DNA of 64,000 nt, from assembly GCA_964344185.1 (NCBI GenBank), contig CAYFMN010000005.1, forward strand, positions 65,516 to 129,515. The letters are read 5' to 3'. Under the pieces are notes generated by a model. It was not told the DNA's origin. It ran no database searches and was given only the letters and a program-made list of their open reading frames with translations. This stretch comes from an uncultured Nitrospinota bacterium (GTDB taxonomy: Bacteria; Nitrospinota; Nitrospinia; Nitrospinales; JAJDAT01). Position numbers and translations under genes: made by a program. This document shows positions 1,832 to 64,000 of the stretch, piece after piece; the stretch's first letter is position 1; the number at the start of each line of letters is the position of its first letter.

Positions 1832-1854
1832 AACTTTTCCTAACAATTTTATAG

Positions 1855-1912
1855 ACGTCCCTTACCCTTCAATAATGGGGAAAAGGCAAGGGACGTTCTA
1901 GTTTAGTGGCGG
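1855..1912 (-). promoter_or_regulatory. conserved hairpin + GTTTAGTGGCGG box element, copy 1 (between fibre-like gene stop and M15A peptidase start)
   Basis: Plus-strand arms ACGTCCCTTACC (1855-1866) and GGCAAGGGACGT (1885-1896) pair at 11 of 12 positions with an 18-nt loop. GTTTAGTGGCGG follows at 1901-1912. Read on the gene strand the order is CCGCCAC, then hairpin, then AGGAAAAG, then ATG. Confidence 0.5.
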
Positions 1913-1920
1913 AGGTTTTT

Positions 1921-4176: not shown

Positions 4177-4206
4177 TTTTTAGGTTCCTTTAAATACATA
4201 AAATCA

Positions 4207-4260
4207 TTTTTTGTCATTTAACAAGGGGGAAAAACAAAAAACGATTCAATTTTGTGGCGG
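4207..4260 (-). promoter_or_regulatory. hairpin + GTGGCGG box element, copy 2 (upstream of fibre-like paralogue A)
   Basis: TTTTTTGT (4207-4214) and ACAAAAAA (4234-4241) flank a 19-nt loop containing ACAAGGGGGAAAA. GTGGCGG lies at 4254-4260. This stem is weaker (A/T only) than in the other copies. Confidence 0.35.
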
Positions 4261-4646
4261 GGTTGTTTTATAAATTTTTTTCAATATTGTTTTCTGATGA
4301 AGAGTTTAAATATCCTTATATGGATATTAAAGATTATATTTTTATTTAAATTCATCATTAGTTTCTTCGGTTGATTAAATATAAGCCCTTACCTATTATG
4401 AAAAATTTAGGGTTCGGAATTAAGAAAACCTTTAAAATTAATGAGTTATAATAAAAAAAATAAAGGTAACCCGTCAAAATTGTCAATATTGAAACAATTT
4501 AAGAAAGAACTAAAGGAGGGACTATTATCAAAAACCGTTATAACTTAAAGTAAATGGAGAAATAACTTCATCGGAAAGAATTTTCCAAAAAACTCGTTAA
4601 GTTCAAGGTAGGAAATATGGAAGGATTCTTAAAATTATGCTTTTAA

Positions 4647-5615
4647 CTAAGTTTTTTGATTGGATTCCGCCTGGAAGGACACCAGTTCTGGCTTAAACGT
4701 TTTGAAGTAAAAAAAGACCCCAAACGCGGAAAGGAAAATTACAACAGCTCTAAGGAGCATCACCACTTCCGCCCCTTGGGCCGTGTTAAATAAGGAAAAA
4801 ATTTCAGATCCCACCGTGTCGCTAACTCCCAATCCTAAAGGAGTAACTGGAACAACTCTAGATAAAATAACAAAGGGCATAACGCAAGAAACAATAAGGG
4901 GCCCAATTAATGATCCAAACGTCATGAAACTAAAGTAAGCCGCAAAAATAACGCACACATGCCCCAAAATTGACAACAAAAGAGAAAGCGCTAAAGTCGA
5001 AAAATGATTACGATAACTTTGCATTGCTAACGCAAAATTAGCTACCGCATTGAATCGTTTTAAAAATGGCAGCTTTTTAAATCCTCTTCTGCTACATATC
5101 AAAGCTAATCCAATCACCGAAATAAATAAAAGTAAAACGCTAAACCATAAAAGGTATTCCAGGTTTTTCTGATTACCCTCCACAAACATAAAAATGGCTC
5201 CAGAGATTGGAGCAATAAGCATAAGACCAAGTAATCCAGCTGAGCGATCCATAATAATACTTGAAAGTATTAAACTCTTTCTGGACGCTAAGTTTTCACA
5301 CTTTGATAAATGATAAAATCGAATCGCTTCAATACCAAGACTACCTGGAACAAAGATATTAGCGAAATATCCCATAAAACCAAGATGCATCGTTTCAAAA
5401 AACGTTAAGTAAATGCCATGAGGACGCAGTAATAATTGCCAACGCAACAAGGTGATTATCAGCATAGCCAATTGGCCAATAAATACGCCAAGCAAAGGCA
5501 AACTAAATTGAAGCGTTAAAAACCTTTCAAAATCCAGACGATCAGAAGCCACAAGCCAATAAAGCAAACCCAAAGCGACCGCTAGCCGAAGTATATTTTT
5601 AATTATGGGATTCAT
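4647..5615 (-). CDS. polytopic membrane protein, UPF0104 / lysylphosphatidylglycerol-synthase-TM ('flippase-like') family
   Basis: 322 aa with about 8 hydrophobic spans. The N-terminal region (LAVALGLLYWLV...LRWQLLL) is typical of the family. It is the last gene of the minus-strand glycan operon and is paralogous in architecture to 54241..55281. Confidence 0.6.
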   Translation of the reverse strand: MNPIIKNILRLAVALGLLYWLVASDRLDFERFLTLQFSLPLLGVFIGQLAMLIITLLRWQLLLRPHGIYLTFFETMHLGFMGYFANIFVPGSLGIEAIRFYHLSKCENLASRKSLILSSIIMDRSAGLLGLMLIAPISGAIFMFVEGNQKNLEYLLWFSVLLLFISVIGLALICSRRGFKKLPFLKRFNAVANFALAMQSYRNHFSTLALSLLLSILGHVCVIFAAYFSFMTFGSLIGPLIVSCVMPFVILSRVVPVTPLGLGVSDTVGSEIFSLFNTAQGAEVVMLLRAVVIFLSAFGVFFYFKTFKPELVSFQAESNQKT

Positions 5616-18903: not shown

Positions 18904-19193
18904 GAATACATAAGCTAATCTAACAAATTAACTCAAACTGAAGATAATGAAAGCAGCTAGACTTGAAATATTTTTCAAGGTCTCTAGCAATCTTTTCTGT
19001 CTCGACAACCACATAAGGTCTAGGCTTAAGAGGCAGTAATGGTTTCGTGGAAATTATTTCCCCTTTACCGTGAAACCGTTTAAGCCCGTAAATATTGCAA
19101 TTGGCTAGTTCCAGTACTAAATATTACCAAGCGATCTCTCTAGGATTAATATATTAAGCCAAAGCTGCAGCCCGAAGCGACGAAGAACGTAGG

Positions 19194-19284
<91 letters not shown>

Positions 19285-19349
19285 AATGTGGTATCTCTTT
19301 TAGGAAGGATAAAGATCTCTCGTTCTTTCCCGTTGCTTTCACCCTGCAA

Positions 19350-19436
19350 CGGAGAGAGAGGGATTCGAACCCTCGGTACCCGAATGGGTACAATAGATTT
19401 CGAGTCTATCGCCTTCGACCTCTCGGCCATCTCTCC
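19350..19436 (-). tRNA. tRNA-Ser(CGA), class II, no encoded CCA
   Basis: Reverse complement is GGAGAGATGGCCGAGAGGTCGAAGGCGATAGACTCGAAATCTATTGTACCCATTCGGGTACCGAGGGTTCGAATCCCTCTCTCTCCG. Anticodon loop is CTCGAAA. Confidence 0.9.
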
Positions 19437-19450
19437 AACGAACGAATGAG

Positions 19451-19524
19451 CACGCCCAAGAGGACTCGAACCTCCGACCTTCGGTTCCGCAAACCGACGC
19501 TCTATCCAGCTGAGCTATGGGCGC
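19451..19524 (-). tRNA. tRNA-Arg(GCG)
   Basis: Reverse complement is GCGCCCATAGCTCAGCTGGATAGAGCGTCGGTTTGCGGAACCGAAGGTCGGAGGTTCGAGTCCTCTTGGGCGTG. Stem TCGGT/ACCGA closes the loop TTGCGGA, giving anticodon GCG. A20 is present in the D-loop. Positions 1:72 form a G:U pair. Confidence 0.75.
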
Positions 19525-19647
19525 TTAATATTCGATATAAATTTAACTAAACCTATTTATAAAACCAAGGCTTTGGGAACTAAAATCAAAATGATTCCTA
19601 AGAAACTAACTCTAATTTAAGAGGAAACAACACTCCTACGGAACGTT

Positions 19648-19675
19648 GAGATCTCCCCACTTCGGTCGAGATGAC
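19648..19675. repeat. short intergenic hairpin repeat (GTCAT...GAGATCTC family)
   Basis: gagatctccccacttcggtcgagatgac. Its reverse complement is gtcatctcgaccgaagtggggagatctc, the same design as the copies at 45.2, 45.4 and 63.0-63.3 kb. Confidence 0.5.
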
Positions 19676-19726
19676 GTTAGGGAGTTAGTTCCTAAATCAA
19701 CAAACTAAAAATCCCAATAAAGAGTT

Positions 19727-20326
19727 TTAAGAGACTCCCATAGGAATATAATCGGTCAACAAAATTTCATACCGCTCATGTTCAAAACCGTAAAGTTTGG
19801 GAAACCGCTTAAACGCCCAACCTTCAAAAATCCGTTTGTCCTTTTCATGAACAATAAATTGAACGGCCGGGTTAGTAGGTTCATTACCCAAAGATGTATA
19901 GTATACCTTATCCATCACAAAGTTTGGAAAAAACGCCCCAACAGTAACCGTCAAATCGGAACCAGTCAAAACAAACGACTCGCCTAAATTAACGGTTTTG
20001 ACTTCGGTTTTTTCCTCGTCTTGTTTATCCTTTATTATAAACTTTACGGCTTTCCACTTTCCTTCAACTTCTTTGGGAATTTGTATTGCGCGTTGTTGTT
20101 TTTGATTCTCGGTAATTTCCGGATGATTTTCCACCTCGGTACGCGAACCTTCGGCGTAAGCCGAACTCTCAGCTTTAACCATTGGCTTTGGGGCCATACC
20201 CGGTAAATTAACCTCGCTTAAAGGGATTTCCCTTGGCTTTTGGTTTCTCTTGGCTAAATCCGCTTCCGAACAACCAAAAGAAACAAAAGCGATAATTAAT
20301 AAAAGAGTTTTCAGTCCTTGCATCAA
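19727..20326 (-). CDS. hypothetical lipoprotein embedded in the tRNA array
   Basis: 199 aa with signal peptide and lipobox (LLIIAFVSFGC|SE). No family confidently recognised. Confidence 0.65.
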   Translation of the reverse strand: MMQGLKTLLLIIAFVSFGCSEADLAKRNQKPREIPLSEVNLPGMAPKPMVKAESSAYAEGSRTEVENHPEITENQKQQRAIQIPKEVEGKWKAVKFIIKDKQDEEKTEVKTVNLGESFVLTGSDLTVTVGAFFPNFVMDKVYYTSLGNEPTNPAVQFIVHEKDKRIFEGWAFKRFPKLYGFEHERYEILLTDYIPMGVS

Positions 20327-20347
20327 GCGGTTTTATCCTAAGTTTTA

Positions 20348-20441
<94 letters not shown>

Positions 20442-20470
20442 TTATAATTCTCAATCAATAATAGCAACAA

Positions 20471-20553
20471 CGGAGGGAGTAGGATTCGAACCCACGGAAC
20501 TTTCGTTCAACGGTTTTCAAGACCGCCGCCTTAAACCACTCGGCCATCCCTCC
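20471..20553 (-). tRNA. tRNA-Ser(TGA), class II, no encoded CCA
   Basis: Reverse complement is GGAGGGATGGCCGAGTGGTTTAAGGCGGCGGTCTTGAAAACCGTTGAACGAAAGTTCCGTGGGTTCGAATCCTACTCCCTCCG. Anticodon loop is CTTGAAA. Confidence 0.85.
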
Positions 20554-28036: not shown

Positions 28037-28198
28037 TGTGGAAAAGCTAGCTAAGTACTCAAAATATAAAGGAAAATTCTATGAATAAATTGTTAGACAA
28101 AATGATACTTTTTTCGGACACGGAAGGATGTAACTTTTTTTACAATATTATACCTTATTTTCCACAAGGATTCACAATTAATTAACAGGTTATCCACG
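28037..28198. promoter_or_regulatory. cluster of four DnaA-box-like 9-mers in the dnaA-gyrB spacer
   Basis: tgtggaaaa at 28037-28045 (reverse complement TTTTCCACA), ttttccaca at 28158-28166, ggattcaca at 28168-28176, and ttatccacg at 28190-28198 (overlaps the dnaA stop). Consensus is TTATNCACA. Confidence 0.4.
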
Positions 28199-29524
28199 TT
28201 CTATTTTTTCGATTAAAGTTTGCACTGACCTGGATATTTCGTTGTTTTCTTTCAATAGCTTACCTATTTTTGTGTGCGAATAAATTACGGTGGTATGATC
28301 CTTCCCACCAAACTCTTTTCCGATCTCCGGTAAGGAGGATTTGGTGCGTTCCCTACACAGGAACATTGCAATTTGTCTTGGAACGGAAATATCACGAGAA
28401 CGCTTCTTGGATTTTAAATCAGAAACCTTTAAATTATAATGAGATGCGACTTGTTTCAGGATGTTTTGAATTGTAAAATTTTCTAAATGATCCTGGGAAA
28501 ACTTCTTGAAGACATTTTTGGCCAAATCCATATTTATAGGTTTTGAAGTAAAAGAAGAATATGCGATTAATCTCAATAGTATTCCTTCCAATTCCCTAAT
28601 GTTTGAGCGGATATTATTTGCTATATAAATCGCCACATCCTCGGATAGATTTATTCCTTGAATTTCTGCTTTTTTTAATAAAATCGCAACCTTAGTTTCC
28701 AAATCTGGAGGTTCCATATCCGCTATCAAACCGCATTCAAAGCGAGATCGGAGCCTTTCCTGAATTTTTTTCATTTCTTTTGGAATCGCGTCGCTTGTAA
28801 TAATAACCTGCTTGTGCGCCTCATATAGCGAATTAAACGTATAAAAAAACTCTTCCTGAGTTCGGTCCTTGCCTTCGATAAACTGAATATCGTCGACTAG
28901 TAGAACGTCTAAAGGTCGGTATCGGTCACGAAAAGCGTTCATACCATCCTTTTTCAATGACTGAATTAAATCGATAGTAAATCCTTCGGTGGAAACATAT
29001 CTGATTTTTAATTTTTTATTTTTTTCGTGAATAGCGTTACCAATAGCATGAAGGAGATGAGTTTTCCCTAAGCCAACAGAACCATAAATAAACAAGGGGT
29101 TATAGGCCATGGCGGGATTAGAGGCCACGGCTTTTGCCGCCGCGTGAGCGAATTGGTTGCAACCGCCCACTACAAAGTTTTTGAAAGTATATTTTTGATT
29201 AAGCGAGGAATTAAAACCTAAATGGTCTTGTTCGTTCGTTTCAATATAGTTGTGTTTTTCATATGAAATTTTTGTTCCGTTTCTTGCGGAATAAACTTTA
29301 AATTTAACGCGAAGCGGAGCTCCTGAAACGGTTTTTAGAGAGTTTTCTATTATATCTAGATAATTTTCTTTCAGGTATTTTTTGAAAAACTCATTGGGTA
29401 CGCCCAGAGTGAAAACCTGGCCGTCGTACGAAATTGGGGAGGTAGGGGTGAACCAGGTGTTATAGTTTTCTGGAACAACCTGATTTACTATTTCTTCTAA
29501 ACATTTGCTCCAGAGAACTTCCAT
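28190..29524 (-). CDS. dnaA: chromosomal replication initiator protein DnaA
   Basis: 444 aa with AAA+ Walker A (GSVGLGKTHLLHAIG), Walker B (LLVDDIQF), sensor region and the C-terminal domain IV HTH (...GGKDHTTVIYSHTKI...). Confidence 0.97.
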   Translation of the reverse strand: MEVLWSKCLEEIVNQVVPENYNTWFTPTSPISYDGQVFTLGVPNEFFKKYLKENYLDIIENSLKTVSGAPLRVKFKVYSARNGTKISYEKHNYIETNEQDHLGFNSSLNQKYTFKNFVVGGCNQFAHAAAKAVASNPAMAYNPLFIYGSVGLGKTHLLHAIGNAIHEKNKKLKIRYVSTEGFTIDLIQSLKKDGMNAFRDRYRPLDVLLVDDIQFIEGKDRTQEEFFYTFNSLYEAHKQVIITSDAIPKEMKKIQERLRSRFECGLIADMEPPDLETKVAILLKKAEIQGINLSEDVAIYIANNIRSNIRELEGILLRLIAYSSFTSKPINMDLAKNVFKKFSQDHLENFTIQNILKQVASHYNLKVSDLKSKKRSRDISVPRQIAMFLCRERTKSSLPEIGKEFGGKDHTTVIYSHTKIGKLLKENNEISRSVQTLIEKIERG

Positions 29525-30313
29525 AGATCTCCATTTTCTCAGGTCTAAAGACGAGGCGAAAAATTAACTGTTTTTTGAGGAATGGGAGCTATAGTAATGA
29601 AGCTCCAATTCAAAATCAATACAAAAATTTTTTTCTTTTATTTTAGATAACTATTTGATTTTAAATTGATTATTTTAAATTTCGGATTGATAAAAACTTA
29701 AAATAATTGATTTTCAACGACTTAAAATTAGAAATTTTTTTAAAAATTAGGTAATTCTAATCTGGTATATAAATTAGGTTTTTGAGCATATGTTATGAAA
29801 AATCAGCGTAATTTTATTATTTGTTTTAGTTAATTATGATAATAAATTTCATTTTCATATTTTTGTTTTTCAGAATGGCCACTGAAAAACTTTATTTAAG
29901 ACCGTCACTATTCATGAAAGTTTTCTAAAATTTGTTTTTTGAACCGATACCTACCTAAAAAACCTTGTTAAAGATTTTTTTTCAATAAGATACAAAAACA
30001 ATATCCTTCATTCTCCATAATAGGTAAGGGCAGTTTAAATCGCCTATAGATTTTTTTAAGGGAAGAACCCTTTTTTCTCCAAAGCAGAGGTTTACCTCCT
30101 TCCTCTGATTACTTGTCTAAATCGAATGTAAACCCCCTCCCTTACATTCGGTTTAGTGGTGGAAAAGGGTTCTTCTCTTTCCTACTAAATTTTGGAAAAG
30201 ATGAATTGTTTTATTTCTAAATATTGCGCGATTTAAAATTGGAATATCTATATTAAATCCGTAATTTGGGAGGAATTTTTTAAACTAACAATTAATTAGA
30301 AAGGAATTTCAAT
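29525..30313. other. AT-rich non-coding region upstream of dnaA at a gene-orientation switch; candidate oriC / DNA-unwinding region
   Basis: About 790 bp without a credible ORF. ATTGAT(T/A) repeats lie at about 29655-29715. Genes to the left (19.7-29.5 kb) are all on the minus strand and genes to the right (30.3-32.2 kb) are on the plus strand. I found no perfect TTATCCACA box here. Confidence 0.3.
30123..30162. promoter_or_regulatory. hairpin + GTTTAGTGGTGG box element, copy 3
   Basis: CGAATGTAA (30123-30131) and TTACATTCG (30142-30150) form a perfect 9-bp stem with loop ACCCCCTCCC. GTTTAGTGGTGG follows at 30151-30162. The element is nested inside an outer 13-bp inverted repeat, gaagaaccctttt (about 30062) and aaaagggttcttc (about 30164-30176). 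Confidence 0.45.
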
Positions 30314-30541
30314 ATGGCAGTAAATTTAATCAGTCGTCCTGACGTAGCTTTAAAAAATAAATCCATTAAAGAAAAGGAAACCGTAATTTCCGAGTATTTA
30401 TCAAAATATCCTGACTCGGAATCTGCGGTAAACGCTGTAAAAACCAAAATAGATTCGGCTCAAGATTTATCTCAGATTAAGTCAAATTTAAACGAGGTAT
30501 TTGCCGAAATTATAAAAGTTATGTATGCCTTAGGAAAATAG
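30314..30541 (+). CDS. hypothetical small protein (75 aa)
   Basis: The ATG is preceded by AAAGGAA. The stop lies 1 nt before the next gene start. No family recognised. Confidence 0.5.
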   Translation: MAVNLISRPDVALKNKSIKEKETVISEYLSKYPDSESAVNAVKTKIDSAQDLSQIKSNLNEVFAEIIKVMYALGK

Positions 30542-30542
30542 A

Positions 30543-30905
30543 ATGTCAAACTCGGAAGCAAATACTGATCGGATTGACCGCATGTCAGTTCGATTAGAAA
30601 AAACAAATGAAAACATAAATGATTTAACCCATGCCGTAACAGAAAATACCGCAGAGATGAAAGAGCTATGTCGAAGAATAGACGGTATTCACAGCACTCT
30701 TTATGGAAATGATGGTATGAGCGGTTTAGTTGATATTGGAAGATTCTCTAAAGAAAAAGTGGAAGAACACGAAACTTTGTTAAGAGGCAAAAATAAAAAC
30801 AATGGGTTAGTCCATGAAGTGCAAATGTTCAAGAGGGTGGCGACATACCTCGGAGGCGGAGGTATTATCGGAGCTTTTTTGGAGTTTTTTAAAAGACAAA
30901 CATAA
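30543..30905 (+). CDS. hypothetical coiled-coil protein with C-terminal hydrophobic anchor (holin-like architecture is speculative)
   Basis: 120 aa. The N-terminal half is charged and helical, and the C-terminus VATYLGGGGIIGAFLEFF is a single hydrophobic segment. Tightly coupled to 30314..30541. Confidence 0.5.
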   Translation: MSNSEANTDRIDRMSVRLEKTNENINDLTHAVTENTAEMKELCRRIDGIHSTLYGNDGMSGLVDIGRFSKEKVEEHETLLRGKNKNNGLVHEVQMFKRVATYLGGGGIIGAFLEFFKRQT

Positions 30906-31221
30906 AATTTTTAGAGAGTTGAAAGTTTTTAGGACGCTTCTAAAAATTGTCATTTTTATTGGCTTGTTATCGCCTAGCCATTGAATTTAAGAGTTAGGCT
31001 CCTGGAAAATCGGAGTTTTTAGAGGTTCCCTTTATTTAAAACCTCTCTGAATATTTTTATGAATTTAAATCTTAAAAGTTTAGAAAATATTTTTAAGCGC
31101 ATTGATTTAAGGTGAAATGCCGTTTGGAGCTTATTGAAATATCGCTTCAAATTTATATCGAGTAATTTTCAATAGGTTCTAGCGGCGTTTTTTTGAAGTC
31201 CTCTGCCATTCAAGGAGGTCT

Positions 31222-32247
31222 TTGTTAACCAAACTTAACCTTCGAGATTTTTTGTCTCGAAGGTTTTTTTATGGAGATGAAGTGATGGCTGTTTTATGCG
31301 ACTTTATTGGGAAATCGGAAAATTTGTCTAATATTTATAAAGAAAAACATATGGAGGTTGATAGCTTTAAATTAACAAAAAATAATAAGTTTAAAGCAAT
31401 AAGTAATTACGATCTTGGAATAAATTTTGTTCAACAAGAATACACGGAAAATAATCAATTTACTTCAGAAGCCGTAGTGAGGGAAGACACGGCAGTTCTA
31501 GCTTGGGGAAAATGGCCTAAAAATTGCGAAAATGGTCGAATTAGTTTCGACTCTGGAAAAAACTTTTTTTACATCATTTCGCGCGAATCAGATAAAAAAT
31601 TGATTTTAGATGGAGTCCCACGAAAAGGAAAGTTTGGTTATTCTATCCGCTTAACTGAATTTGATTTAGGAGAAGTCAAACTTTGCGCGAATAGAAGTTC
31701 TAATTTGAAATTTGAAGAATGGTCGATCAGTTTAGATGAAATTTCTAAAAATGTAGCGAATGAATATGTATCAGTTAGCGATGCCAAAGCTATTTCGACA
31801 GTAACCTGCTCTAATGTAGTTTCCGCTTCAGTCGTGGAAAATAAAGACGCGGAAAGTGTTTATTACTGGTTGGTCTTCTATCTACATCCAAATATCGATG
31901 AAAATGCAGAAGTAAAAATTTTTAACAAAGAGAATAAATTATGGAGAATAATAGCTAGAAGCAGAGCCGGCTTTTGGGAATATAACAATTCGCCTAACGC
32001 TAAAACGGAAACTTGGGTTTTAGCGTCGGCAAATGATTTTCTTCATGCTGTTTCTGAAGCTATATCTTCAAAAAAAGTAAATAGAATGGCAGGAGAAGAT
32101 TTAGTCGGAATAACAGAACAGGAGTGGAGTTTACTGAACGGTAGCTTGGTAGAAGCCGAATACTTTTCTAAAGGCATTACGTTAAATTCCGCAGATCCTA
32201 AAAATAATCCAGCCGTGTCTCAATTTTGCCTGGATTGTGAAAAATAA
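31222..32247 (+). CDS. truncated, diverged paralogue (B) of the tail-fibre-like family, lacking the conserved N- and C-terminal domains
   Basis: Shares several blocks with paralogues A and C: NFVQQEYTEN...WPKNCENGRISFDSG...IRLTEFDLGEVKL, EYVSVSD...VYYWLVF...AEVKIFNKENKLWRIIA...WEYNN, and NDFLHAVSEAIS...NRMAGEDLVGITEQEW...KGITLNS...NPAVSQF. The TTG start sits only 3 nt after AGGAGG, so the true start is uncertain. This may be a gene remnant. Confidence 0.55.
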   Translation: MLTKLNLRDFLSRRFFYGDEVMAVLCDFIGKSENLSNIYKEKHMEVDSFKLTKNNKFKAISNYDLGINFVQQEYTENNQFTSEAVVREDTAVLAWGKWPKNCENGRISFDSGKNFFYIISRESDKKLILDGVPRKGKFGYSIRLTEFDLGEVKLCANRSSNLKFEEWSISLDEISKNVANEYVSVSDAKAISTVTCSNVVSASVVENKDAESVYYWLVFYLHPNIDENAEVKIFNKENKLWRIIARSRAGFWEYNNSPNAKTETWVLASANDFLHAVSEAISSKKVNRMAGEDLVGITEQEWSLLNGSLVEAEYFSKGITLNSADPKNNPAVSQFCLDCEK

Positions 32248-32843: not shown

Positions 32844-33740
32844 TTAGAATGATTTCCAAGCGCCAATTATTCTACCCACTACTGGGTCGGGATATTCTTT
32901 TAAGTTTACGATTTGAATTTGTGCGGAGGGGTTAAGAGGTCGAAGAATCAAGAAACTTTTTCCCACTTCTACATATTTTGCCGTTAAGCCATTTTCATGA
33001 AAGATTGCGTACATTTGATTTTTTTCTATGGTTTTATCATTTCGGTCAATAATTACTATGTCTCCCGAGTGTAATGTAGGTTCCATAGAATCTCCTTCAA
33101 CACGGCTGGCTACAAGGTTATTACGTCGACCTGTGGCGCGGGTATGTAATAAGACATAGTCTTCGATATTCTCATGCTGAATGATGGGTTGTCCCGCCGC
33201 AATAGAAGAATCGGTTAGAGGAATTGAAATATAATCTTCTTGGTTAATTGCGGGGCCTCTTTGATCCGGATAGCTATTGTAAACTTTTAGCTGAGGAAGA
33301 ACTCGCTCTGATTCAGGTTTATCGTCGGTTAATATATTTTGAATTGAGGTTCCCAAACTAGTGCAAATTTTATTTATTAATTCTGTCGAAAATGACCAGG
33401 TCCCTTTTTCATAAAACTCCAAAGAAAGTTCGGGAATATCGATTTTTTGAGCGAGTTTTTTAACGGAAAACCCTTTTTGTTCTCTCAAATTCTTAATCTT
33501 CTTTGCGATTTTTTTATCCCATTGAGAAGATGACTTTTTGCCTGTCAGGAGCCAATTGAAATCCGCATGAAAATATGAAGAAATAGTCAACAATATTTCA
33601 GAAGATGGAACCGTTCTCCGCTGTTTCCATTTTTTAAGAGTGTCGTAGTTAAGATCGGTAACCTGCGAAAAAGATCGCAGAGAATTCCCTTCCAATAATT
33701 GAAAAAACCGATCAAAAATTTCCCCACCATTAAGCTTCAT
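32844..33740 (-). CDS. LexA/CI-like autocleavable repressor: two N-terminal HTH domains + S24 peptidase domain
   Basis: 298 aa. Carries two Cro/CI-XRE-type HTH segments (...LRSFSQVTDLNYDTLKKWKQ... and ...GFSVKKLAQKIDIPELSLEFYEKG...), an Ala-Gly cleavage-site context IAAGQP, and S24 motifs GDSMEPTL (Ser) and GLTAKYV (Lys). Confidence 0.8.
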   Translation of the reverse strand: MKLNGGEIFDRFFQLLEGNSLRSFSQVTDLNYDTLKKWKQRRTVPSSEILLTISSYFHADFNWLLTGKKSSSQWDKKIAKKIKNLREQKGFSVKKLAQKIDIPELSLEFYEKGTWSFSTELINKICTSLGTSIQNILTDDKPESERVLPQLKVYNSYPDQRGPAINQEDYISIPLTDSSIAAGQPIIQHENIEDYVLLHTRATGRRNNLVASRVEGDSMEPTLHSGDIVIIDRNDKTIEKNQMYAIFHENGLTAKYVEVGKSFLILRPLNPSAQIQIVNLKEYPDPVVGRIIGAWKSF

Positions 33741-56894: not shown

Positions 56895-58847
56895 TTAAGA
56901 TTTAGCCTGTAATCCCCACGAGTGTAAGAATTGGTCTTTACCTTGCTCCGTTTCATAACGACAACGTAAATCTTGGCCGGATGCCTGACCAGTTATGTCA
57001 ACAGTTCCACGAAAGATATGCTGATCTCCAATCAACGGAAGACCTTGTTGGGTCATAGGAACGGATGTCCATTCGGAACCGCCGTTTCTGCTGACGTAGA
57101 AATTTCCTGGTCCATCTGAATCAGAATGTTCAATTCGCGACCAAATGTAACCTTCAGATGGAATGAATCCAGGATCATAAGCTTTACTGCGCAAATCCAT
57201 ACCGCTGCGCACAGAGTCGTAATTCAAGCGATATTGGGCTACGAAAGGATTTTGAGAAGAATCGTTAGAGTAAAGCGTTACTCCACGGACTACTGAATTG
57301 ACTGAGTTGGACCATCCGCCGGATTCTTCCCATTGTGCGTCCGTGATAGCCGCGAGATTGGTTCCTGACATGCGATTAGCGGCCTGCACTGAAATAGCTT
57401 GCGATACAGCGTGAAGCATTTCGTTGGTTTCGGCTTGTACGCCGGTGTAATCGTTTGCAGCGCTGCTAATATAGGTATGTGGACTCGTTGGAGGCGTAAA
57501 GTTTGAAGTCCACAGTGCGGATTTAGTAAAACGCACTTCATCGAGCCAACCGTCAAAATAATTTCCGGAAGGGGTCGCAAGAGGTTTAGTGCCTAAGAAT
57601 AATTTACTGCTGCTATGGACGCCACAATCTGCGTCGCCTAAAGGACCGCTGGTAACTTTTAGGATTCCATCTTCAAATATTCTATATAATCGTCCTTGTC
57701 GTACAAACGCTATATGGTACCACTGGCCCGTGGCGAGCGTGGATTCTCTGGTAAAATGAAAACTAAAATTAGTGTGAGAAGGATGAGCATAAGTTAATTG
57801 ATATATATTTCCACTCGCATTAAAGATTTCCCAAGAATCATTTGCAGAATCACCAACCCCTAAAATATTTGATCCTCCACTTGTAGTATTAAACCTAATC
57901 CAAAAATCGATTGTGAAATCATTAGCACCGAAAGAAAAATCGTCCGAAGCAGAATCGGATCGGATATAATCTCCTGTTCCGTCAAACAATAGCGACGATC
58001 CTCCGAACTTACTTTGCGTAGTGTCTATCTGAGCGTTGCCGTAAGTTGTAAAAGCATGTCCTGAAGGTCCGTTATCAATAATTGTTGTACTTGCATCAGC
58101 GCCGTCCCCATGAATCAACAGTTTCGTTGTGTCGTGGATTGCATTGTTATATTCCCAAGTACTGCCATTATTCTTAGCGATAGTTCTCCAAACGGAGCCA
58201 TCTTGGTTGAAGATTTTAATTTCGGTTCCGTCTCCAAAATTGGAAACAGGGTCGAGAGCTAACCAGTAATAGACACTTTGAGAATTAAGCGTTTCTGTAG
58301 CCGAGCCGCTATTAATATCTGACCAAGAGGATGTATCTGTCTTCTGAATTTCAGAATCGCACAGTGAAACATATTCAGAGGCTACGTTTGTCTGATCGGC
58401 TATTAATTCAATTTCGTGAATTCTGCAGTAATCTTGACTCCAAACGGCTGTTATCACGAGGTAATACCACCGAAAATTAGTACTATTAGAAAACGGAATG
58501 GCGGTCATTGGCCCAACTGTAACTGAATCTTCAGAATCATAAATTACTTCTGGAAAATTTGTTTCTGTATGCAATGACGTCGCCCCATTAGCTATTGGAT
58601 TTTGATTTTCTATTGGAGTTGTATTGGATCCGTAGATTTTAAAATCTTTCAAGGAACCTCCACCACTATCCGCAGAACTGTTCAGAACAATTTTGTTAAC
58701 TTTTCGAGCCTCTCCAATATCGATTGCAACCCACCTTAGATCTCCGCCTGTTGATATGCTATACCAAATTGCTGATTCTGTTGATGCACTATCGTTGTCT
58801 ATAGCCTTAGAACCGCCTCCAGTCGGAATGTGCGTTAGAATGAACAA
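56895..58847 (-). pseudogene. tail-fibre-like family paralogue C, downstream (C-terminal) reading frame: discoidin-like + LamG-like + conserved C-terminal modules
   Basis: 650-aa frame with no plausible independent N-terminus. It continues the alignment to paralogue A exactly where 58807..60324 stops. The LamG/ConA-like module (...FGGSSLLFDGTGDYI...FTIDFWIRF...WYHIAFV...LDEVRF) is encoded at about 57482-58142. The C-terminal 250 aa are highly similar to paralogue A. Confidence 0.6.
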
Positions 58848-60324
58848 ACGCGCTTCCAGGGCTAGTTAGATCCCCCGAACTTGGATGGTGATTAAGTTGC
58901 ACAAAACCAGAATCAAACTCGCTCATTCGAATTATGTAGTCAGATGTTCCATTAGCCGCTATGGAAGCCAGAGTCAGCGTCGTGTCTGAGTCTCTGGAAA
59001 GAATATTGTGCCAGCTAGAACCGGAATCAAAACTAATACGACCGCCCGCGCAATTAGTGGGAAAGACACCTGACGATAGTGAAACGGTTGAATTACTTTC
59101 TGTAAATATTTTGAACCATCTATCGTGGCTGGTATTTGATGTAGTAAGCGGGGCAATAGCGGAGCCATCTGCATAAATCGAAGGCGTTGTAGAATCTTGA
59201 TTCCAATAGTTTGAAGCGTCGAAAGAACCGGTTCTACTAATAACGACACAATAATAAGTTCCAGCGTTAACGGTGTATCTTTCACTTCCAGAAAATTGAA
59301 AAGTTACTTCTTCATAAGAAGTTCCTATGGCGCTTCCGCTAACTGTATCAGAAGTCGCTAACAGGGTACTGCCGGCTCCTGTTGCGCTTTGCGGACTTAA
59401 GTTATATAAATAACCTATGAGGTCGTCTGTTGGAGATCCGACTTTTTTTAATTTAAAAACGAATTTATCTAAAATACCGGTAGATTTACAAAGAAATGAT
59501 TGACCGGTATTATCTTGTCCTGCGGCAGTGCCCACAGTCGTGTCTGTGCCGCCTATGAAACTACTTTGATCAACTGATGAAATTTCTATTACTGTAGCTT
59601 GAGATGTTGATTGATTAGAGTTCGTCCATTCCTGTTGAAGATAATTAGATTCTGTATCGTAATTTCTATCAGAAATTAAATTAGTTCCAGGATCGGTTCC
59701 TTTATAGAGCTTGTTTGTGTTGTCATGTTGAAAGCCGGTGGAGTTTGCCTCGTCCGCTCCTTGTTCGTCTGGATTGGAAAAAGAATCGGACCATCCCGCT
59801 TCCATCAGCAACGCTCCGCCATGATTTTCCTGAATCTCATCAAACGCCCTCATGATATTACTTGTATTGACGGAAGTCTGTTCGTTGTCTGTCGTTGAAT
59901 TTGCCAATTGGAAATCGGTTCCGTCGTATACTAAAGTCACTATTCCACTTTCAGGAATATCGCCTTGCTTCAAATCGCTTCCGTCAATTTTTTTTATGCT
60001 CTTTACTCCCAATGAGTTAACGTCGCCGGTGGCGGGACCTGTGTTTGTTGTATGAGCTTTCATGTAAACAAACAAACCCTCGCTCAAAACTGTGGGAGCG
60101 GGATTCAAAGTTACGTTATAAGCCGCTCCAGAGCCGGTGGAATCCGCAAACCAATAAGCGCCTGCCTGAGTGTTTTGATTTAGTTGATCGGCTGATGTAT
60201 ATAAATCGTTTACATCTATATCGATCTTGTCAAAAGAATCTTTGATTCTGGTAACGTCGTCCTCCAGCATATTGTCGGGATGAGGCATTGGATATTCGCG
60301 ATTTACGGTTTTTTGATCGATCAT
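58807..60324 (-). pseudogene. tail-fibre-like family paralogue C, upstream (N-terminal) reading frame
   Basis: 505-aa frame. The first roughly 245 aa are highly similar to paralogue A (MIDQKTVNREYPMPHPDN...SNYLQQEWTN). A paralogue-specific insert of about 170 aa (about 59070-59589) precedes the shared FPTNCAGGRISFDSG...SEFDSGFVQLN block. The frame overlaps the downstream frame by 41 nt. Confidence 0.6.
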
Positions 60325-60348
60325 ATTGCTATTTCCTTTGAGTATGAA

Positions 60349-60404
60349 ATCGCCCCTTGTCTTTTATTATCAAAAATACAAGGGGCGATGTGGTTAAGTG
60401 GCGG
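60349..60404 (-). promoter_or_regulatory. hairpin + AAGTGGCGG box element, copy 4 (upstream of paralogue C)
   Basis: ATCGCCCCTTGT (60349-60360) and ACAAGGGGCGAT (60378-60389) form a perfect 12-bp stem with a 17-nt loop. GTGGCGG lies at 60398-60404. On the gene strand the order is CCGCCAC, 8 nt, hairpin, AAAGGAAA, ATG. Confidence 0.5.
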
Positions 60405-60714
60405 AAACGTTTAAGGAAAATTTTTAAAAATTTAAAATTGCAAAAATCTGTTCTTAGAAACAAGACTTGGCTAAATCAAATTATTAAAAATTTCCATAAG
60501 ATAAATAAAAAAAATCTTTTTCGAGCTTTAGAAAATTAAAGTCTAGTTGAGATATTTTTAAATACTCCCTTATATATTGCAGGAAATTTAGGTAAGATTT
60601 TTTTAACTCATTGAAACTTAAGAGAAAATAATAATAAAAGGAGAGGTATGGGCAGAAAAGTTGAATGAATTGGGAAGGGATTATTAATTTATGATTTGCT
60701 AAAAACTTGCCTTT

Positions 60715-62481
60715 TTAAAATAAACCTATAGAGCCGTTTGCATAGACAATACCGTTACTTCTGTCCGACGGATTAGGGCCAGTAATAGGAAGACCGTAGC
60801 TGATTGAAAACGATATTGGAGGACGGTATTCGGAGGTTCCAAACTCGCCGCCCTTGGGAACGTTTATTTGCACGCCAAATCCGGCGCCGGTAATGGATTC
60901 CATTTTTGTTTCCCCGATTAATAAACCGCGAGTAAATACTTTTCCGTATTCAAGGAATCCGGTAAACGATATTATGTCGGCGATAGTGAATTTATCGATT
61001 CCGAAAGGAAATTTGGAAGGAAAGGGCAATACGTATTCAGTAGCTAAGTTATATCCCCAGTCGCCCGATTGCGCCGCTAATGGAAAACCCCGCACCGTGC
61101 CAAAGCCGCCAACAGCAAATTGGTCTGGAGAAAGCGTGCGATTGCTGACCAATTGCGTGTTTGCTTTCCATATAAAATAACTGTTTAGAAAAGGAGTCGC
61201 TTGATATCGAGTTAGATTAACGGAAGTAAGAAAAATATCGGCGCTTCCGTTGACGCGAGAAGGTAGAGCGGCGCTATCGTTGGGGAAAATTCCATATTGA
61301 ACTTTCCAGTCGAAAATATTATTGCCAAGATACGAATCGCTGAAATTGCCGCTAAAGCCAAAATAGATATCGCGAATTACGTCGTTGCTGGTAGTGGAAC
61401 CCAAGGCAAAGTTGACGAACTTTTTATGATCGAAACCCATCCTGAATTTAAGTCCCGAAGTTTTATCTCGCAACAGAGCCTGGGAATATTCCATATTGAA
61501 AAGCCGCGTTCGACCGCCGCCTCTTAGAGCCTCCAAGCTGGCGCCTAAAGTTTGTTCCGAATAAGTATAGCTAAACTTGAGGTTTTTTCTTCCTATATCG
61601 TCAAGCGGGTATTGATAGGAAAAAGTTAAAGACTGCTGGTCTAATTCTGACGCCACTCCGCGAAAGAGAAAAAAATCTCCCAATACCGCAGTGTTTGCGG
61701 CGGTTGCCGTAACCCCGGCCCGGTTGGCTCCCGTAAATTCTGAACCAAAATTATCCACGTCGAAGCTGAAAGAATAAGGGCTGGTTTCGGTAACTTCAAG
61801 AATCAAGTCCGAAGTTCCCGGCTCCTTGCCTGGGCGCAAAATTGATCGAGCTTTGATTCCGGCTAGATCGTTGATTTCAAGGAGGGTTCGTTCTAAAGTT
61901 TCTTCTTTTAGAATATCCTCATCCGCAACAGGTTGCATTCGTTTTAACAGATCTTCTGCTTTGGTTCGTTTATTTTTTTCGATGGAGATTTTGCCAATTT
62001 TTCCTTCGTCGATTTTCATGATCACGGTGTCGTCGATCAACTCTTGTTCCGGGATGTAAGCCTTGGCCAGGAAATAGCCAGCTTGCGAGTAATGAGCGGA
62101 AACTTCTTGCGCCATGAGAGACAACAGGCCAAGAGTTAATTCCAAGCCTTCGGGGCCTAAATCGACAATCGGATCTAGGATCTCGTTGCTAAAAAGAGTG
62201 TTTCCCTCGATCTTTACTTTTTTTACGAAAAATGAAGGACCTGCGCCAGGATCAACTAGTTCTCTACTGTCTTCTATAGTGATGATTTCCGCTTTTTCTT
62301 GAAATTGGGGGTTGAATGGTTTTGGCTGTGATTGCCGCAAAGATTTTTCGGCAATACCGGCTTCACCGGCTGGCGGAATAGCCACTTGAGCCGCGCTGGG
62401 AGCGGTCCATCCAAGAAAAATTAATAATGTGAAAACCAGTAGATTCATCAATCGCTCAATTTTTGGACAAAGATTGGCCAA
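60715..62481 (-). CDS. ShlB/FhaC/HecB-family two-partner-secretion outer-membrane transporter (TpsB)
   Basis: 588 aa with a signal peptide (possible start at Met-12, 62448). Has a POTRA region (FFVKKVKIEGNTLFS...) and a C-terminal 16-strand-type beta-barrel with alternating pattern, ending ...YANGSIGLF (terminal aromatic). Confidence 0.8.
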   Translation of the reverse strand: MANLCPKIERLMNLLVFTLLIFLGWTAPSAAQVAIPPAGEAGIAEKSLRQSQPKPFNPQFQEKAEIITIEDSRELVDPGAGPSFFVKKVKIEGNTLFSNEILDPIVDLGPEGLELTLGLLSLMAQEVSAHYSQAGYFLAKAYIPEQELIDDTVIMKIDEGKIGKISIEKNKRTKAEDLLKRMQPVADEDILKEETLERTLLEINDLAGIKARSILRPGKEPGTSDLILEVTETSPYSFSFDVDNFGSEFTGANRAGVTATAANTAVLGDFFLFRGVASELDQQSLTFSYQYPLDDIGRKNLKFSYTYSEQTLGASLEALRGGGRTRLFNMEYSQALLRDKTSGLKFRMGFDHKKFVNFALGSTTSNDVIRDIYFGFSGNFSDSYLGNNIFDWKVQYGIFPNDSAALPSRVNGSADIFLTSVNLTRYQATPFLNSYFIWKANTQLVSNRTLSPDQFAVGGFGTVRGFPLAAQSGDWGYNLATEYVLPFPSKFPFGIDKFTIADIISFTGFLEYGKVFTRGLLIGETKMESITGAGFGVQINVPKGGEFGTSEYRPPISFSISYGLPITGPNPSDRSNGIVYANGSIGLF

Positions 62482-63016
62482 TTTAGCAAATCTACGCAGT
62501 ATACCACTTTTGCAAGCGGTAAATGAGCGACCGTTTTGGAAGAAACGACTTAATTTTTGAAGGTAAAATTAAAGCGAAAAATAATATGAATTTAAGAGAT
62601 TTTCGCTAGATTTTACGGAAAGGAAAGTAAGCCCGAAGGCGATTTGTTATTTAACGGAAAAAAGAAGAGTTCCATGAAGAGGGATTCTTTTGAAAGGATT
62701 CAAAGGAAGAGCAACAACGTCTATTTAATAACATTCTTGGAGGATATAAACAAGGAATTCTTAATGAGGGTTAATCTAGTTTGGTATGAAAAAAATGCGA
62801 GGTCTTTTTTTTGAGATATGAGTTTATAGCGAGAATATTTTGATAAATCAGAGGAACAGAAAAAACAGAATCTACTTTTGCGGAAAGTTTTAAAGTTGTT
62901 AAGAAAACCAGGGATCAAATGATTACTTTGGTTTACCAAGTCTCGCTTTGCGTGACGAGTCGTAGGATTTGCAGGGAACTAACGTTTACATTTTCGAAGA
63001 CAAAAAACTAAAGTGC

Positions 63017-63081
63017 GTCATTCAGAACCGAAACTTCTTTGATGAGCCTACACTGAGCCTGTCGGAGGGGTGAAGAATCTC
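63017..63081. repeat. composite short intergenic repeat (GTCATTCAG...GAAGAATCTC with nested CACTGAGCCTGTCGGAGGGGTGA unit)
   Basis: gtcattcagaaccgaaacttctttgatgagcctacactgagcctgtcggaggggtgaagaatctc. Its flanks (acaaaaaactaaag... and ...atcaagaac) are repeated around 63301-63339. Confidence 0.55.
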
Positions 63082-63212
63082 ATCAAGAACCGTGAGTTTC
63101 TAATAGATTTTATTTTTTTAAAGTTGAGTTTTTTTAAGTAAGTGATTCACGGTGATTGCTTTTTTAACGAGAGTTTATTGTCACGGTTGTTTTGTAAAAC
63201 CACCGGTAAAAT

Positions 63213-63239
63213 GAGATCCCTCGGCAAGCTCGGGAGGAC
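63213..63239. repeat. short hairpin repeat (GAGATCCCTCGG...CGGGAGGAC type)
   Basis: gagatccctcggcaagctcgggaggac, with inverted repeat ccctcg.../...cgggagg. Confidence 0.45.
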
Positions 63240-63300
63240 AATTTGGTGAGTTCAGTTAGAGACTACCGTTAATGTTTGCGGAAAACAAAAACCAAAGCAT

Positions 63301-63339
63301 GTCATTCTGAAGCGATACGAAGTATCGGTGAAGAATCTC
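63301..63339. repeat. short intergenic repeat (GTCATTCTG...GAAGAATCTC) with perfect inner hairpin
   Basis: gtcattctgaagcgatacgaagtatcggtgaagaatctc, with inner stem cgatac-gaa-gtatcg. Confidence 0.55.
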
Positions 63340-63420
63340 ATTAAGAACTATGAATCGTTTTGAAAATTATTTTATTCGAAGTCGAAGGTTTTTAAGAAGC
63401 GATTGCCTACCATACTATCA

Positions 63421-64000
63421 CTAACAACCGCCGCCGCTACTGCTACCGTTGCTGGTAAAACTTGAGACAAAGGTACTTTGAATAGCTTGAGAGAAATCCG
63501 CTTGCTGTTGTTGTGGGACAATTGTCGGTGGTAGCACTGTTTCAACCACTGGAGTTACCACTGTTTCAATCACTGGGGTTACCTCTACCACTGGTGCAGT
63601 ACAAAGCCCAGCTTCTTGCTCGGCTTCGTCGCAAACTCCATCTGCAAATGGATCTGGCTCAACATCGCCTACTGTTATTGTGCCGCTAGCTGTGATATTT
63701 CCTTCATTCGATAGGTTTCCTGGCGTGCTGACAGTAACGTCTCCACCTTGATTGTTAATTTTTATCACTGAAATATCGTCAGTTTCGTTGAAATTGACGT
63801 TCCCAGAAGTTGTATTATCGACGTCAATGGATGCTACTTGGATATCGATCGCGTCATCCGCCGCATTGGCTCCTTTTGAACCGTCATTTCCAATTCCCGT
63901 TACGACATCGATCACCAAGCGCCCAGTTTTAGCTTCGATATCAGGACTACCGGCGTCGCCGTTATCAATAATTCCTCCGCTGGTGGATGTCAAAACCACC
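63421..64000 (-). CDS. C-terminal end of a large beta-helical exoprotein (filamentous-haemagglutinin / TpsA-like), truncated by window edge
   Basis: The frame is open to the window end. It has G/N/D/T-rich beta-helix-like repeats (...DIEAKTGRLVIDVVTGIGNDG...VDNTTSGNVNFNETDDISVIKINNQGGDVTVSTPGNLSNEGNITASGTITVGDV), then TPV(V/I)ETV repeats and a Ser/Gly tail ending in Cys. It lies upstream of and is co-oriented with the TpsB gene. Confidence 0.6.
   Translation of the reverse strand, partial: VVLTSTSGGIIDNGDAGSPDIEAKTGRLVIDVVTGIGNDGSKGANAADDAIDIQVASIDVDNTTSGNVNFNETDDISVIKINNQGGDVTVSTPGNLSNEGNITASGTITVGDVEPDPFADGVCDEAEQEAGLCTAPVVEVTPVIETVVTPVVETVLPPTIVPQQQQADFSQAIQSTFVSSFTSNGSSSGGGC

Follow-up and report, generated by a model that had tools for sequence, protein, structure and literature searches.

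Fibre gene loci and their leader cassettes

The window analysed here is a 64,000-nucleotide (nt) stretch from an uncultured Nitrospinota/Nitrospinia bacterium (GenBank assembly GCA_964344185.1, contig CAYFMN010000005.1, positions 65,516 to 129,515 of the forward strand) and corresponds to a chromosomal origin region, with dnaA at 28190-29524 on the minus strand and the minimum of the cumulative GC skew near 28-30 kb. It carries the loci A, B and C of a phage-tail-fibre-like gene family, and the 5' leaders of the fibre genes at loci A and C, as well as the leader of an endolysin-like gene that ends locus A, contain a cassette of ~100 nt which combines a conserved box, CCGCCAC, with a hairpin, a Shine-Dalgarno sequence and the start codon (Table 1).

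The fibre family is small, a family search giving ~64 close proteins with many paralogues per genome. Its members have a conserved N-terminal domain of 230 amino acids (aa), beginning MIDQKT, and variable central domains that include discoidin and LamG folds, and the family matches PHROG families annotated as tail and baseplate proteins, fibre gene A matching a 'tail protein' family at 7.9e-19. The endolysin-like gene is ~90% identical in two related loci, L002 and L013, where the orthologue is preceded by the same cassette. Fibre gene C consists of two open reading frames (ORFs) that share a 41-nt overlap, a split that is probably a frameshift; its 505-aa product is on record at NCBI in identical form (P0058).

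Table 1. Positions in the window of the leader cassettes, their parts, the four reported copies and the associated genes and modules
Feature	Position	Strand	Details
Leader cassette, 162-aa endolysin-like gene	1826-1925	-	R1 94.1 bits, E 2e-16; box 1906-1912, hairpin 1855-1896, ATG 1829-1831
Leader cassette, fibre gene A	4175-4273	-	R1 89.4 bits, E 2e-15; box 4254-4260, hairpin 4203-4245, ATG 4174-4176
Leader cassette, fibre gene C, A/T-rich pre-box to ATG	60323-60417	-	R1 79.3 bits, E 2e-13
Box CCGCCAC (GTGGCGG on plus strand), copy C	60398-60404	-	columns invariant or nearly so in alignments A4 and A5
Leader hairpin, copy C	60349-60389	-	12-bp stem AUCGCCCCUUGU/ACAAGGGGCGAU, 17-nt loop, predicted -20.9 kcal/mol
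Shine-Dalgarno region AAAGGAAA, fibre gene C	60332-60339	-	ATG at 60322-60324
Reported copy 1	arms 1855-1866, 1885-1896; GTGGCGG 1906-1912		plus-strand view
Reported copy 2	A/T-rich arms 4203-4214, 4234-4245; GTGGCGG 4254-4260		plus-strand view
Reported copy 3	arms within 30123-30150; GTGGTGG 30156-30162		plus-strand view
Reported copy 4	arms 60349-60360, 60378-60389; GTGGCGG 60398-60404		plus-strand view
Copy 3, non-member	30123-30162	.	15-bp hairpin and CCACCAC within an 18-19-bp inverted repeat (~30058-30076, 30162-30180)
Endolysin-like (M15-type) gene, 162 aa	1343-1831	-	last of locus A; PHROG endolysin match 1.4e-6
Fibre gene A (751 aa)	1921-4176	-	MIDQKT-type N-terminal domain and discoidin-like central domain
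Fibre gene C, two overlapping ORFs	56895-60324	-	58807-60324 (505 aa) and 56895-58847 (650 aa; LamG, discoidin domains)
Head module	4374-4538; 60553-60717; 29878-30042	-; -; +	also at L006, L010, L013, L015, L016, L019, L021, L023

Architecture of the cassette

Read in gene sense, the cassette begins with an A/T-rich stretch ending in AAAC and continues through the box CCGCCAC, a (T/A)AA-N6-9 segment, the stem, the loop and the complementary arm, after which an A/U-rich spacer of 12-15 nt leads to AAGGA and, 7-10 nt further on, to the ATG. All three cassettes of the window lie on the minus strand, with hairpins of 37-43 nt at 9-12 nt from the box. The box follows the non-palindromic consensus (Y)CCGCCAC(T/A)AA, the stem measures 11-15 bp, and the loop is free to vary; the spacing is fixed, at 9 or 12 nt from box to stem and at 12-15 nt from stem to GGA. 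The hairpin leaves the Shine-Dalgarno sequence free, its stem ending ahead of the GGA and the consensus fold showing no anti-Shine-Dalgarno pairing; a sequestering helix, formed by a YUCC before the box with GGAA, was predicted for copy C only and is gone from the consensus fold. The 103-nt leader of fibre gene C folds with a z-score of -4.5. The hairpin of fibre gene A is A/U-rich, with -8.6 kcal/mol on the sense and -4.2 on the antisense strand, the corresponding values for the endolysin-like gene being -23.5 and -17.7 kcal/mol. The cassette of this latter gene occupies the spacer that follows the stop codon of fibre gene A at 1921.

An earlier note made from the letters of the window (the original prediction) had described four copies of a hairpin followed by a GTGG(C/T)GG box, all of plus-strand polarity and at every fibre-family locus. 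On reading the sequence, all four are found in place. GTGGYGG occurs 12 times in the window against 4.35 expected, and a box with a stem of at least 9 bp within 2-16 nt occurs four times, whereas 200 Markov simulations gave 0.185 on average and never more than 2. One of the 12 matches (GTGGCGG at 19193) is accounted for by tRNA genes, since tRNA 3' ends in the window read CCGCCA; a cluster of five tRNA genes lies at 19197-20553 on the minus strand, several of them with near-identical 3' halves ending in this sequence.

The order of hairpin then box is, however, an antisense view of the element, the functional order being box and then hairpin on the minus, gene-sense strand. Aligned on that strand, copies 1, 2 and 4 are homologous over ~100 nt and score 94, 89 and 79 bits (E 1e-13 to 1e-16) with a covariance model of the cassette, R1. 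A scan of the window with R1 gave no significant match beyond the three cassettes of Table 1, and searches of the window for hairpin-less box patterns gave no additional credible sites. Copy 3 does not belong to the family: its score with filters off, 10.9 bits, is no better than noise, and it has in common with the others only a box-like CCACCACTAAAC, its stem being unrelated and no gene lying downstream. That the element accompanies every fibre-family locus was therefore too strong a claim, as the plus-strand locus B (30314-32247) is without a true copy, and in related genomes the solo or first fibre genes and the whole MSQPTPY-type subfamily are without it. The G-rich AAGGG(G/A) 'core' turned out to be merely the 3' arm of the stem as read on the antisense strand. 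The stems, described as differing in sequence under compensatory change, are one homologous stem, YCGYCCYTTGY, in which the compensatory changes are genuine but limited. The original view was supported in that the element is shared and bound to a specific gene set, the fibre paralogues and the M15-like peptidase gene, and in that it lies in the 5' leader, with the preceding stop codon on one side and the ribosome-binding site on the other.

Distribution across Nitrospinia loci

R1 was built from 13 copies (effective sequence number 2.36) and used to scan ~340 kb of partly overlapping sequence, comprising the window and related Nitrospinia loci. Every related locus found among species-representative genomes is from a metagenome-assembled genome of Nitrospinia or Nitrospinales; an origin region of Leptospira, considered at first, was rejected because all relatives are of Nitrospinia or Nitrospinota. 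The scan gave 20 significant matches (E <= 2e-7), 16 before fibre genes and three before the endolysin-like gene, the remaining one being truncated at the end of a contig, such that 19 of the 20 stand directly before genes of the family; no significant match was found elsewhere in this sequence. Fibre homologues of further Nitrospinia genomes (L001, L002, L003 and L005) also have the cassette in front of them, and its presence in the same form before non-homologous genes fits the small regulon that had been proposed.

Two groups of loci from JGI data are syntenic with those of the window. L013 corresponds to locus A and contains five fibre genes, the 162-aa gene and a convergent aminotransferase gene, while L019 and L020 correspond to locus C, with genes for ShlB, five fibres, a 75-aa protein, TatA and FAD synthetase. 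In the arrays of L013 and L019, one cassette lies in each intergenic spacer (97-222 nt). The number of fibre genes at syntenic loci is 1, 3 or 5 for locus A and 1 or 5 for locus C, and this variation at fixed sites suggests cassette expansion and contraction by recombination. The sites themselves are conserved, one being the gap between an LPG-synthase-like gene and the aminotransferase gene and the other that from ShlB/TpsB to TatA/FAD synthetase. Directly upstream of locus C lies a two-partner-secretion pair (60715-63999 on the minus strand of the window; 1-3919 of L019), made up of a transporter (ShlB/POTRA) and a giant DUF5649 protein, which has 5421 aa in L019, and this neighbourhood is kept between genomes. 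The 75-aa gene is found both in the region 30314-30905 on the plus strand of the window and at 23041-23268 of L019, with 43% identity; in L019 it has a CCGCCAC box without a hairpin, and downstream of it lies a 120-aa gene whose product has a hydrophobic C-terminus. Together with the fibre genes, the 75-aa and 120-aa genes may encode lysis or assembly accessories.

Searches of viruses and metagenome contigs did not return the element. IMG/VR viruses gave no pattern match to the element and no relative of the fibres, the strict element pattern had no match in metagenome contigs, and a protein-based metagenome scan returned four loci, none of which has the element.

The hairpin is missing before solo fibre genes and the first genes of arrays (L006, L010, L015, L016, L021, L023 and the first genes of L013 and L019). 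Even so, a box-like motif, TCCGC(C/T/A)A with TTATTAATC behind it, is retained in these leaders ~35-40 nt ahead of the ATG, and the hairpin-less leader of the 75-aa gene keeps TCCGC(C/T/A)A at this distance as well, which indicates that the box and the hairpin are modules that can be separated. The second fibre subfamily (N-terminus MSQPTPY) forms arrays in which both are missing. A further variant occurs in L014 (Ga0491458_000017, 554599-576833), where a podovirus-like structural module with weak SU10-adaptor and T7 gp14 matches is accompanied by six tandem MIDQKT-type fibre genes, each behind a diverged box (ACGYAAT..AATCTTA) and a short hairpin; this locus links the fibre family to a prophage.

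A second conserved non-coding module of ~110-130 nt, referred to here as the head module, lies 80-330 nt upstream of the first gene at every locus of MIDQKT-type fibres. Its conserved blocks are TTTGACAnTTTTGAC, CCCTACC(C/T)TTT, ACCTAAAT and (C)ATAATAGGTAAGGG, and it contains TTGACA repeats. The inverted repeat formed by 4385-4411 and 30005-30031 of the window is explained by this module. Considered as a structured RNA, the head module gave no consensus fold, and the complementarity between CCCTACC and GGTAGGG is not kept; it may be the promoter or operator of the locus.

Selection on the box and an RNA hairpin

The neutral yardstick was taken from codons 1-42 of the adjacent fibre genes, whose synonymous third positions have a mean pairwise identity of 0.58. 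Identity is 0.76 in the box region, 0.79 and 0.72 in the two stem arms and 0.92 in the Shine-Dalgarno block, compared with 0.58 in the loop and 0.50 in the spacer between Shine-Dalgarno sequence and ATG, and inter-genome pairs alone give the same figures. Box and stem, but not the loop, are thus more conserved than synonymous sites and under purifying selection beyond any effect of gene conversion.

The covariance model and covariation check that the original prediction had called for, run on 20 copies, showed that the hairpin is kept by compensatory change. RNAalifold predicts the hairpin only, with compensatory changes in 5 of 10 pairs. In the 20-copy alignment, 92.5% of the cells form standard pairs compared with 40-53% when the partners are slid, and 8 of 12 pairs are changed on both sides, a value reached by none of 500 shuffles. 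This alignment was fitted to the model and so favours structure, and an independent MAFFT alignment agrees. The strand can be told from the wobble pairs: on the gene-sense strand there are 17 G·U or U·G cells against 4 C·A cells, and in all three window copies an A·C mismatch on the plus strand becomes a G·U pair on the minus strand. The mean hairpin energy is -18.9 kcal/mol on the sense and -17.2 on the antisense strand. Covariation, G·U asymmetry and energy difference together indicate an RNA hairpin in the sense transcript, and the hairpin is a selected RNA structure on that strand.

The same strand evidence counts against an antisense element and against an operator at the DNA level, in which the 12-bp inverted repeat, with the box as part of the site, would be bound by a dimeric regulator such as the CI-like protein encoded at 32844-33740. 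Such an operator would account for an inverted repeat beside a conserved box in a promoter-proximal position, and a CI-type repressor and small helix-turn-helix proteins are indeed encoded in the window. However, within one genome the arm sequences co-vary (CGCCCCUUGU, CGUCCCUUGCC, CGUUUUUUGU) in a way that one protein would not accommodate, the 17 wobble cells would be mismatches in a DNA palindrome, the spacing of the arms ranges from 8 to 19 nt, and the candidate regulators are missing from all other fetched fibre loci. An operator is accordingly highly improbable, and the palindrome is better explained as RNA structure.

A different account would treat the cassette as a by-product of recombination with little regulatory role, or as a crossover point for cassette shuffling. 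The differing fibre copy number at the syntenic loci fits this account, as do mosaic leaders. Two leaders of L013 (7567-7669 and 9904-10003) are near-identical over a tract that starts at the 5' base of the stem and takes in the first 45 codons, and differ upstream, the box-to-stem spacer being AAATCTACTAAG in one and TAAACTAGA in the other; judging from the two sequences, the break at the hairpin is a gene-conversion or recombination boundary. There is also a precedent in the PeSL cassettes of phages (PMC4122927), discussed below. Against this account, box and stem exceed synonymous sites within the same conversion tracts while the loop and the spacer from Shine-Dalgarno sequence to ATG do not, the stem is kept by compensatory changes, and the cassette also precedes the endolysin-like gene, which has no coding homology to the fibres. 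Recombination as the whole explanation is very unlikely.

Known element classes

The cassette could not be assigned to a described class of element. At the gathering threshold, Rfam 15 recognised only six tRNAs in the window, and E-value scans of 60300-60720, 1800-4660 and 29500-30400 gave sub-threshold chance matches only, namely mir-7957 (22 bits, cutoff 76) and ar14 (26 bits, cutoff 58.8). A dispersed repeat of the repetitive extragenic palindromic (REP), bacterial interspersed mosaic element (BIME) or MITE (miniature inverted-repeat transposable element) type would likewise be a repeated, hairpin-forming intergenic sequence. In contrast to such repeats, all 20 copies have the same orientation, lie immediately upstream of members of a single gene family and contain the gene's Shine-Dalgarno sequence, and within the ~340 kb scanned the element is confined to the leaders of this gene set, so that on this sequence the test for a generic REP-like repeat suggested at the outset came out in favour of a specific element. 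The integron attC site was rejected as well: ACTAAAC, upstream of the stem, agrees with R'' (RYYYAAC) at 6 of 7 positions, with the third Y broken, and no GTTRRRY (R') partner follows the stem. A tRNA 3' fragment or attachment site was rejected given the lack of a T-arm upstream of the box.

The hairpin is also not a canonical terminator, as the original prediction had argued. Intrinsic terminators have loops of ~3-8 nt and at least ~5 U within 8 nt, whereas the predicted loops here measure 8-19 nt in most copies and the tails contain 3.8 U on average, with 6 U in only 4 of 19 copies. A terminator scan of L013 flags none of its five intergenic hairpins. It has nevertheless to be considered that the hairpin acts as an attenuator or partial terminator, with read-through conferred by a factor that recognises the box in the style of Q, RfaH or LoaP. 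A stable leader hairpin directly after a conserved non-palindromic box would be in keeping with this, some tails are U-rich (6 of 8 nt are U in UUUUAUAU, for instance), and processive antitermination typically serves arrays of long genes. The low average U content just given, the large loops and the negative terminator scan speak against it, as does the tail of the three leaders of the endolysin-like gene, which has only 1-2 U in 8 nt. Moreover, canonical terminators consisting of a hairpin and a T-run exist in this genome, for instance at 30058-30080, and near the loci neither a NusG paralogue nor a Q-like gene was seen. Attenuation is consequently a poor candidate for the function of the cassette.

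Possible role of the box and the hairpin

The preferred reading, which is put forward tentatively and falls somewhat short of probable, is that the cassette constitutes a family-specific leader in which a promoter-like or recognition box is followed by a 5'-proximal hairpin that stabilises or insulates the mRNA. The box would then be the core of a dedicated transcription recognition site, either an internal promoter or a site for a specialised sigma factor, activator or RNA polymerase; it is read as a transcription element because of its fixed distance of 9 or 12 nt from the stem and its persistence in hairpin-less leaders. Transcripts of each cassette would start at, or be processed to, the base of the hairpin, a position to which that fixed distance is the sole pointer. 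In the RNA, the hairpin would serve as a 5'-proximal stabiliser and insulator protecting the mRNA of each cistron, and would keep the ribosome-binding site independent of the upstream cistron without occluding the Shine-Dalgarno sequence. The hairpin is taken for an mRNA stabiliser because only its structure is conserved and because it ends 12-15 nt before the Shine-Dalgarno sequence. Being repeated between tandem genes, the cassette would also travel with recombination and gene-conversion tracts that alter the number of cassettes.

Several observations weigh against this reading. The box fits no sigma-factor consensus tried. A scan for sigma-70 -35/-10 pairs found no promoter-like site at any spacer of L013, and manual fitting also failed. 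By eye, the sigma-54 consensus was rejected for lack of a GG/GC pair at -24/-12, that of sigma-28 because GCCACTAA, set against GCCGATAA, is without the CGA core and wrongly spaced, and that of extracytoplasmic function (ECF)-type sigma factors because the spacing of AAC...CGTC is inconsistent across copies. Of the shared promoter/operator with a structured 5' untranslated region that had originally been envisaged, the RNA structure is borne out, whereas no sigma-70-type -35/-10 pair is detectable at the element. Furthermore, the first genes of loci have the separate conserved head module with its TTGACA repeats. The true promoter may lie in this module; the box would then be part of the transcript and could act as RNA. 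Gene conversion between paralogues of one array means that part of the conservation is concerted evolution, and the sequences are few and related, as their low effective number indicates.

The main rival takes up several of these points and regards the cassette as an intercistronic RNA element. The arrays would be transcribed polycistronically from the head promoter, the box region, taken as single-stranded, C-rich and A/U-rich, would be a cleavage or protein-binding site rather than a promoter, and the hairpin would mark and shield a new 5' end, or else the 3' end of the upstream fragment. Such an element would be comparable to processing sites between the genes of phage T7 or to stabilising hairpins between cistrons. 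Between tandem genes the cassette fills the spacer entirely and no terminator intervenes, and the hairpin tracks the internal position, solo and first genes being without it; the head module upstream of each locus, the lack of a sigma-70 consensus at the box and the evidence for a sense-strand RNA structure also agree with this rival. However, retention of the box in hairpin-less leaders implies that it has a role of its own, and in the window the hairpin is present in copies A and C although each stands before a fibre gene that is the first and only one of its locus. Classical RNase III sites need stems longer than 11-15 bp, and no conserved pairing partner for the box was found. An intercistronic element is on this evidence rather unlikely, though likelier than attenuation, recombination alone or an operator.

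A more far-reaching and decidedly improbable variant of the promoter-like reading assigns the box to a dedicated transcription system of phage origin, as its promoter or recognition site, with the fibre arrays and the endolysin-like and 75-aa genes forming a 'late regulon' that is activated in trans and supplies a prophage or particle. Promoters of single-subunit RNA polymerases of the T7/T3 type have a contiguous core of ~20 bp, with CACTA(T/A)A before the G at +1. The majority box, CCGCCACTAAA, resembles the T3/T7-type core CACTAAA in one subtype only: in the majority subtype the sequence is CCGCCACTAAAC, in other copies CACTTAA or CACAAAA, and no G follows. No phage-type RNA polymerase gene was seen, and no RNA polymerase domain was found in the large window ORFs scanned. 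If the late-regulon proposal were true, cassette libraries on the host chromosome would supply interchangeable tail fibres to a resident podovirus-like prophage, such as that of L014, or to a domesticated phage-like particle, and each cassette would come with a portable expression unit of box and 5' hairpin that also mediates cassette gain and loss. The genes concerned lie scattered over the chromosome, at sites conserved among Nitrospinia genomes.

The region of copy 3 and neighbouring regulators

Copy 3 is part of a larger structure. Its inverted repeat encloses ~85 bp and sits on the dnaA-distal side of the head module of locus B. The region 30058-30180 folds with -52 kcal/mol (z = -5.9) on the plus strand, with G·U pairs, and more weakly on the minus strand (-43.7 kcal/mol, z = -2.95). 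The left arm of the repeat is a hairpin followed by a T-run and is terminator-like, and no related sequence was found in the fetched loci. Candidate identities for copy 3 are a relic leader, a small RNA with structure and the two arms of a terminator that works in both directions. As judged from the arrangement of its repeats, an invertible segment is an alternative candidate, and with an invertible promoter switch in mind, no recombinase was seen among the window ORFs scanned.

The segment 32844-34912 is a prophage-like immunity region. It encodes a CI-type repressor of 298 aa with an S24 peptidase domain on the minus strand (32844-33740), followed by two small divergent ORFs of 149 and 114 aa; the C-terminus of the latter resembles sigma-70 region 4 by eye but has no Pfam match. 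These regulators had been named as possible binding partners of the element. Homologues of the genes adjoin no other fetched fibre locus. Nothing ties these regulators to the element, and for lack of co-occurrence with the other fibre loci they were rejected as its cognate factors.

Known systems and significance

The closest published analogue of the cassette is found in the PeSL cassettes of T4-like phages, composite promoter/stem-loop motifs that lie between variable genes and are implicated in modular shuffling (Arbiol et al. 2010, PMC2839356; Comeau et al. 2014, PMC4122927). In these, the stem-loop stands upstream of a sigma-70-type promoter (-35/N17/-10) and is read as a terminator (PMC4122927). 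Both are small composite motifs made up of an A/T-rich stretch, a promoter element (here the putative one of the box), a stem-loop, a Shine-Dalgarno sequence and an ATG, repeated in the spacers between variable genes of the host-range type and ending in the Shine-Dalgarno sequence and ATG of the next gene. Both are conserved within a genome and tied to insertions, deletions and exchanges, which here take the form of copy-number change and mosaic leaders. In the Nitrospinota cassette, however, the stem-loop lies downstream of the box, between it and the Shine-Dalgarno sequence, there is no sigma-70 consensus, the hairpin lacks a U-tract and is not terminator-like, and the replicon is a bacterial chromosome instead of a T4-like phage. 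With respect to module order, promoter consensus, hairpin type and chromosomal setting, the cassette is therefore not a member of the PeSL family.

The part from hairpin to start codon recalls leaders with 5'-terminal stabilising stem-loops, such as those of Escherichia coli ompA and phage T7 gene 10, in which a promoter is followed by a hairpin at +1, an A/U-rich spacer and the Shine-Dalgarno sequence. Here, too, a recognition sequence would be followed at once by a stable hairpin, an A/U-rich spacer of ~12-15 nt, a Shine-Dalgarno sequence and the ATG, with the hairpin off the ribosome-binding site and its structure conserved, not the sequence of its loop; the position at the 5' end is putative in the cassette, and its loops are much larger. 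Leaders recognised by NusG paralogues offer a third comparison, RfaH acting at the ops/JUMPStart element GGCGGTAG and LoaP at a leader hairpin. They share with the cassette a short non-palindromic leader motif, with or without a hairpin, the association with long surface or accessory operons and the restriction to a small regulon. In contrast, the box on the non-template strand is CCGCCAC and not the ops sequence, no NusG paralogue was identified near the loci, and the element stands before every gene and not once per operon.

A full-text literature search on tail fibres of Nitrospinota found nothing and Rfam gave no match, and in these sources no description of a promoter or leader element from the phylum was met with. 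The cassette is a previously undescribed cis-regulatory element with covariation support in Nitrospinota, an ecologically important uncultured phylum of marine nitrite oxidisers. It marks a small regulon of multi-copy phage-tail-fibre-like genes and a cell-wall hydrolase, situated at conserved loci of varying copy number, and the covariance model provides a handle for finding all members of this regulon in complete genomes. It thereby makes two questions testable: which of a prophage, a phage-derived particle and the cell itself the fibres work for, and whether modular shuffling is promoted by composite promoter/hairpin cassettes in systems other than T4-like phages.

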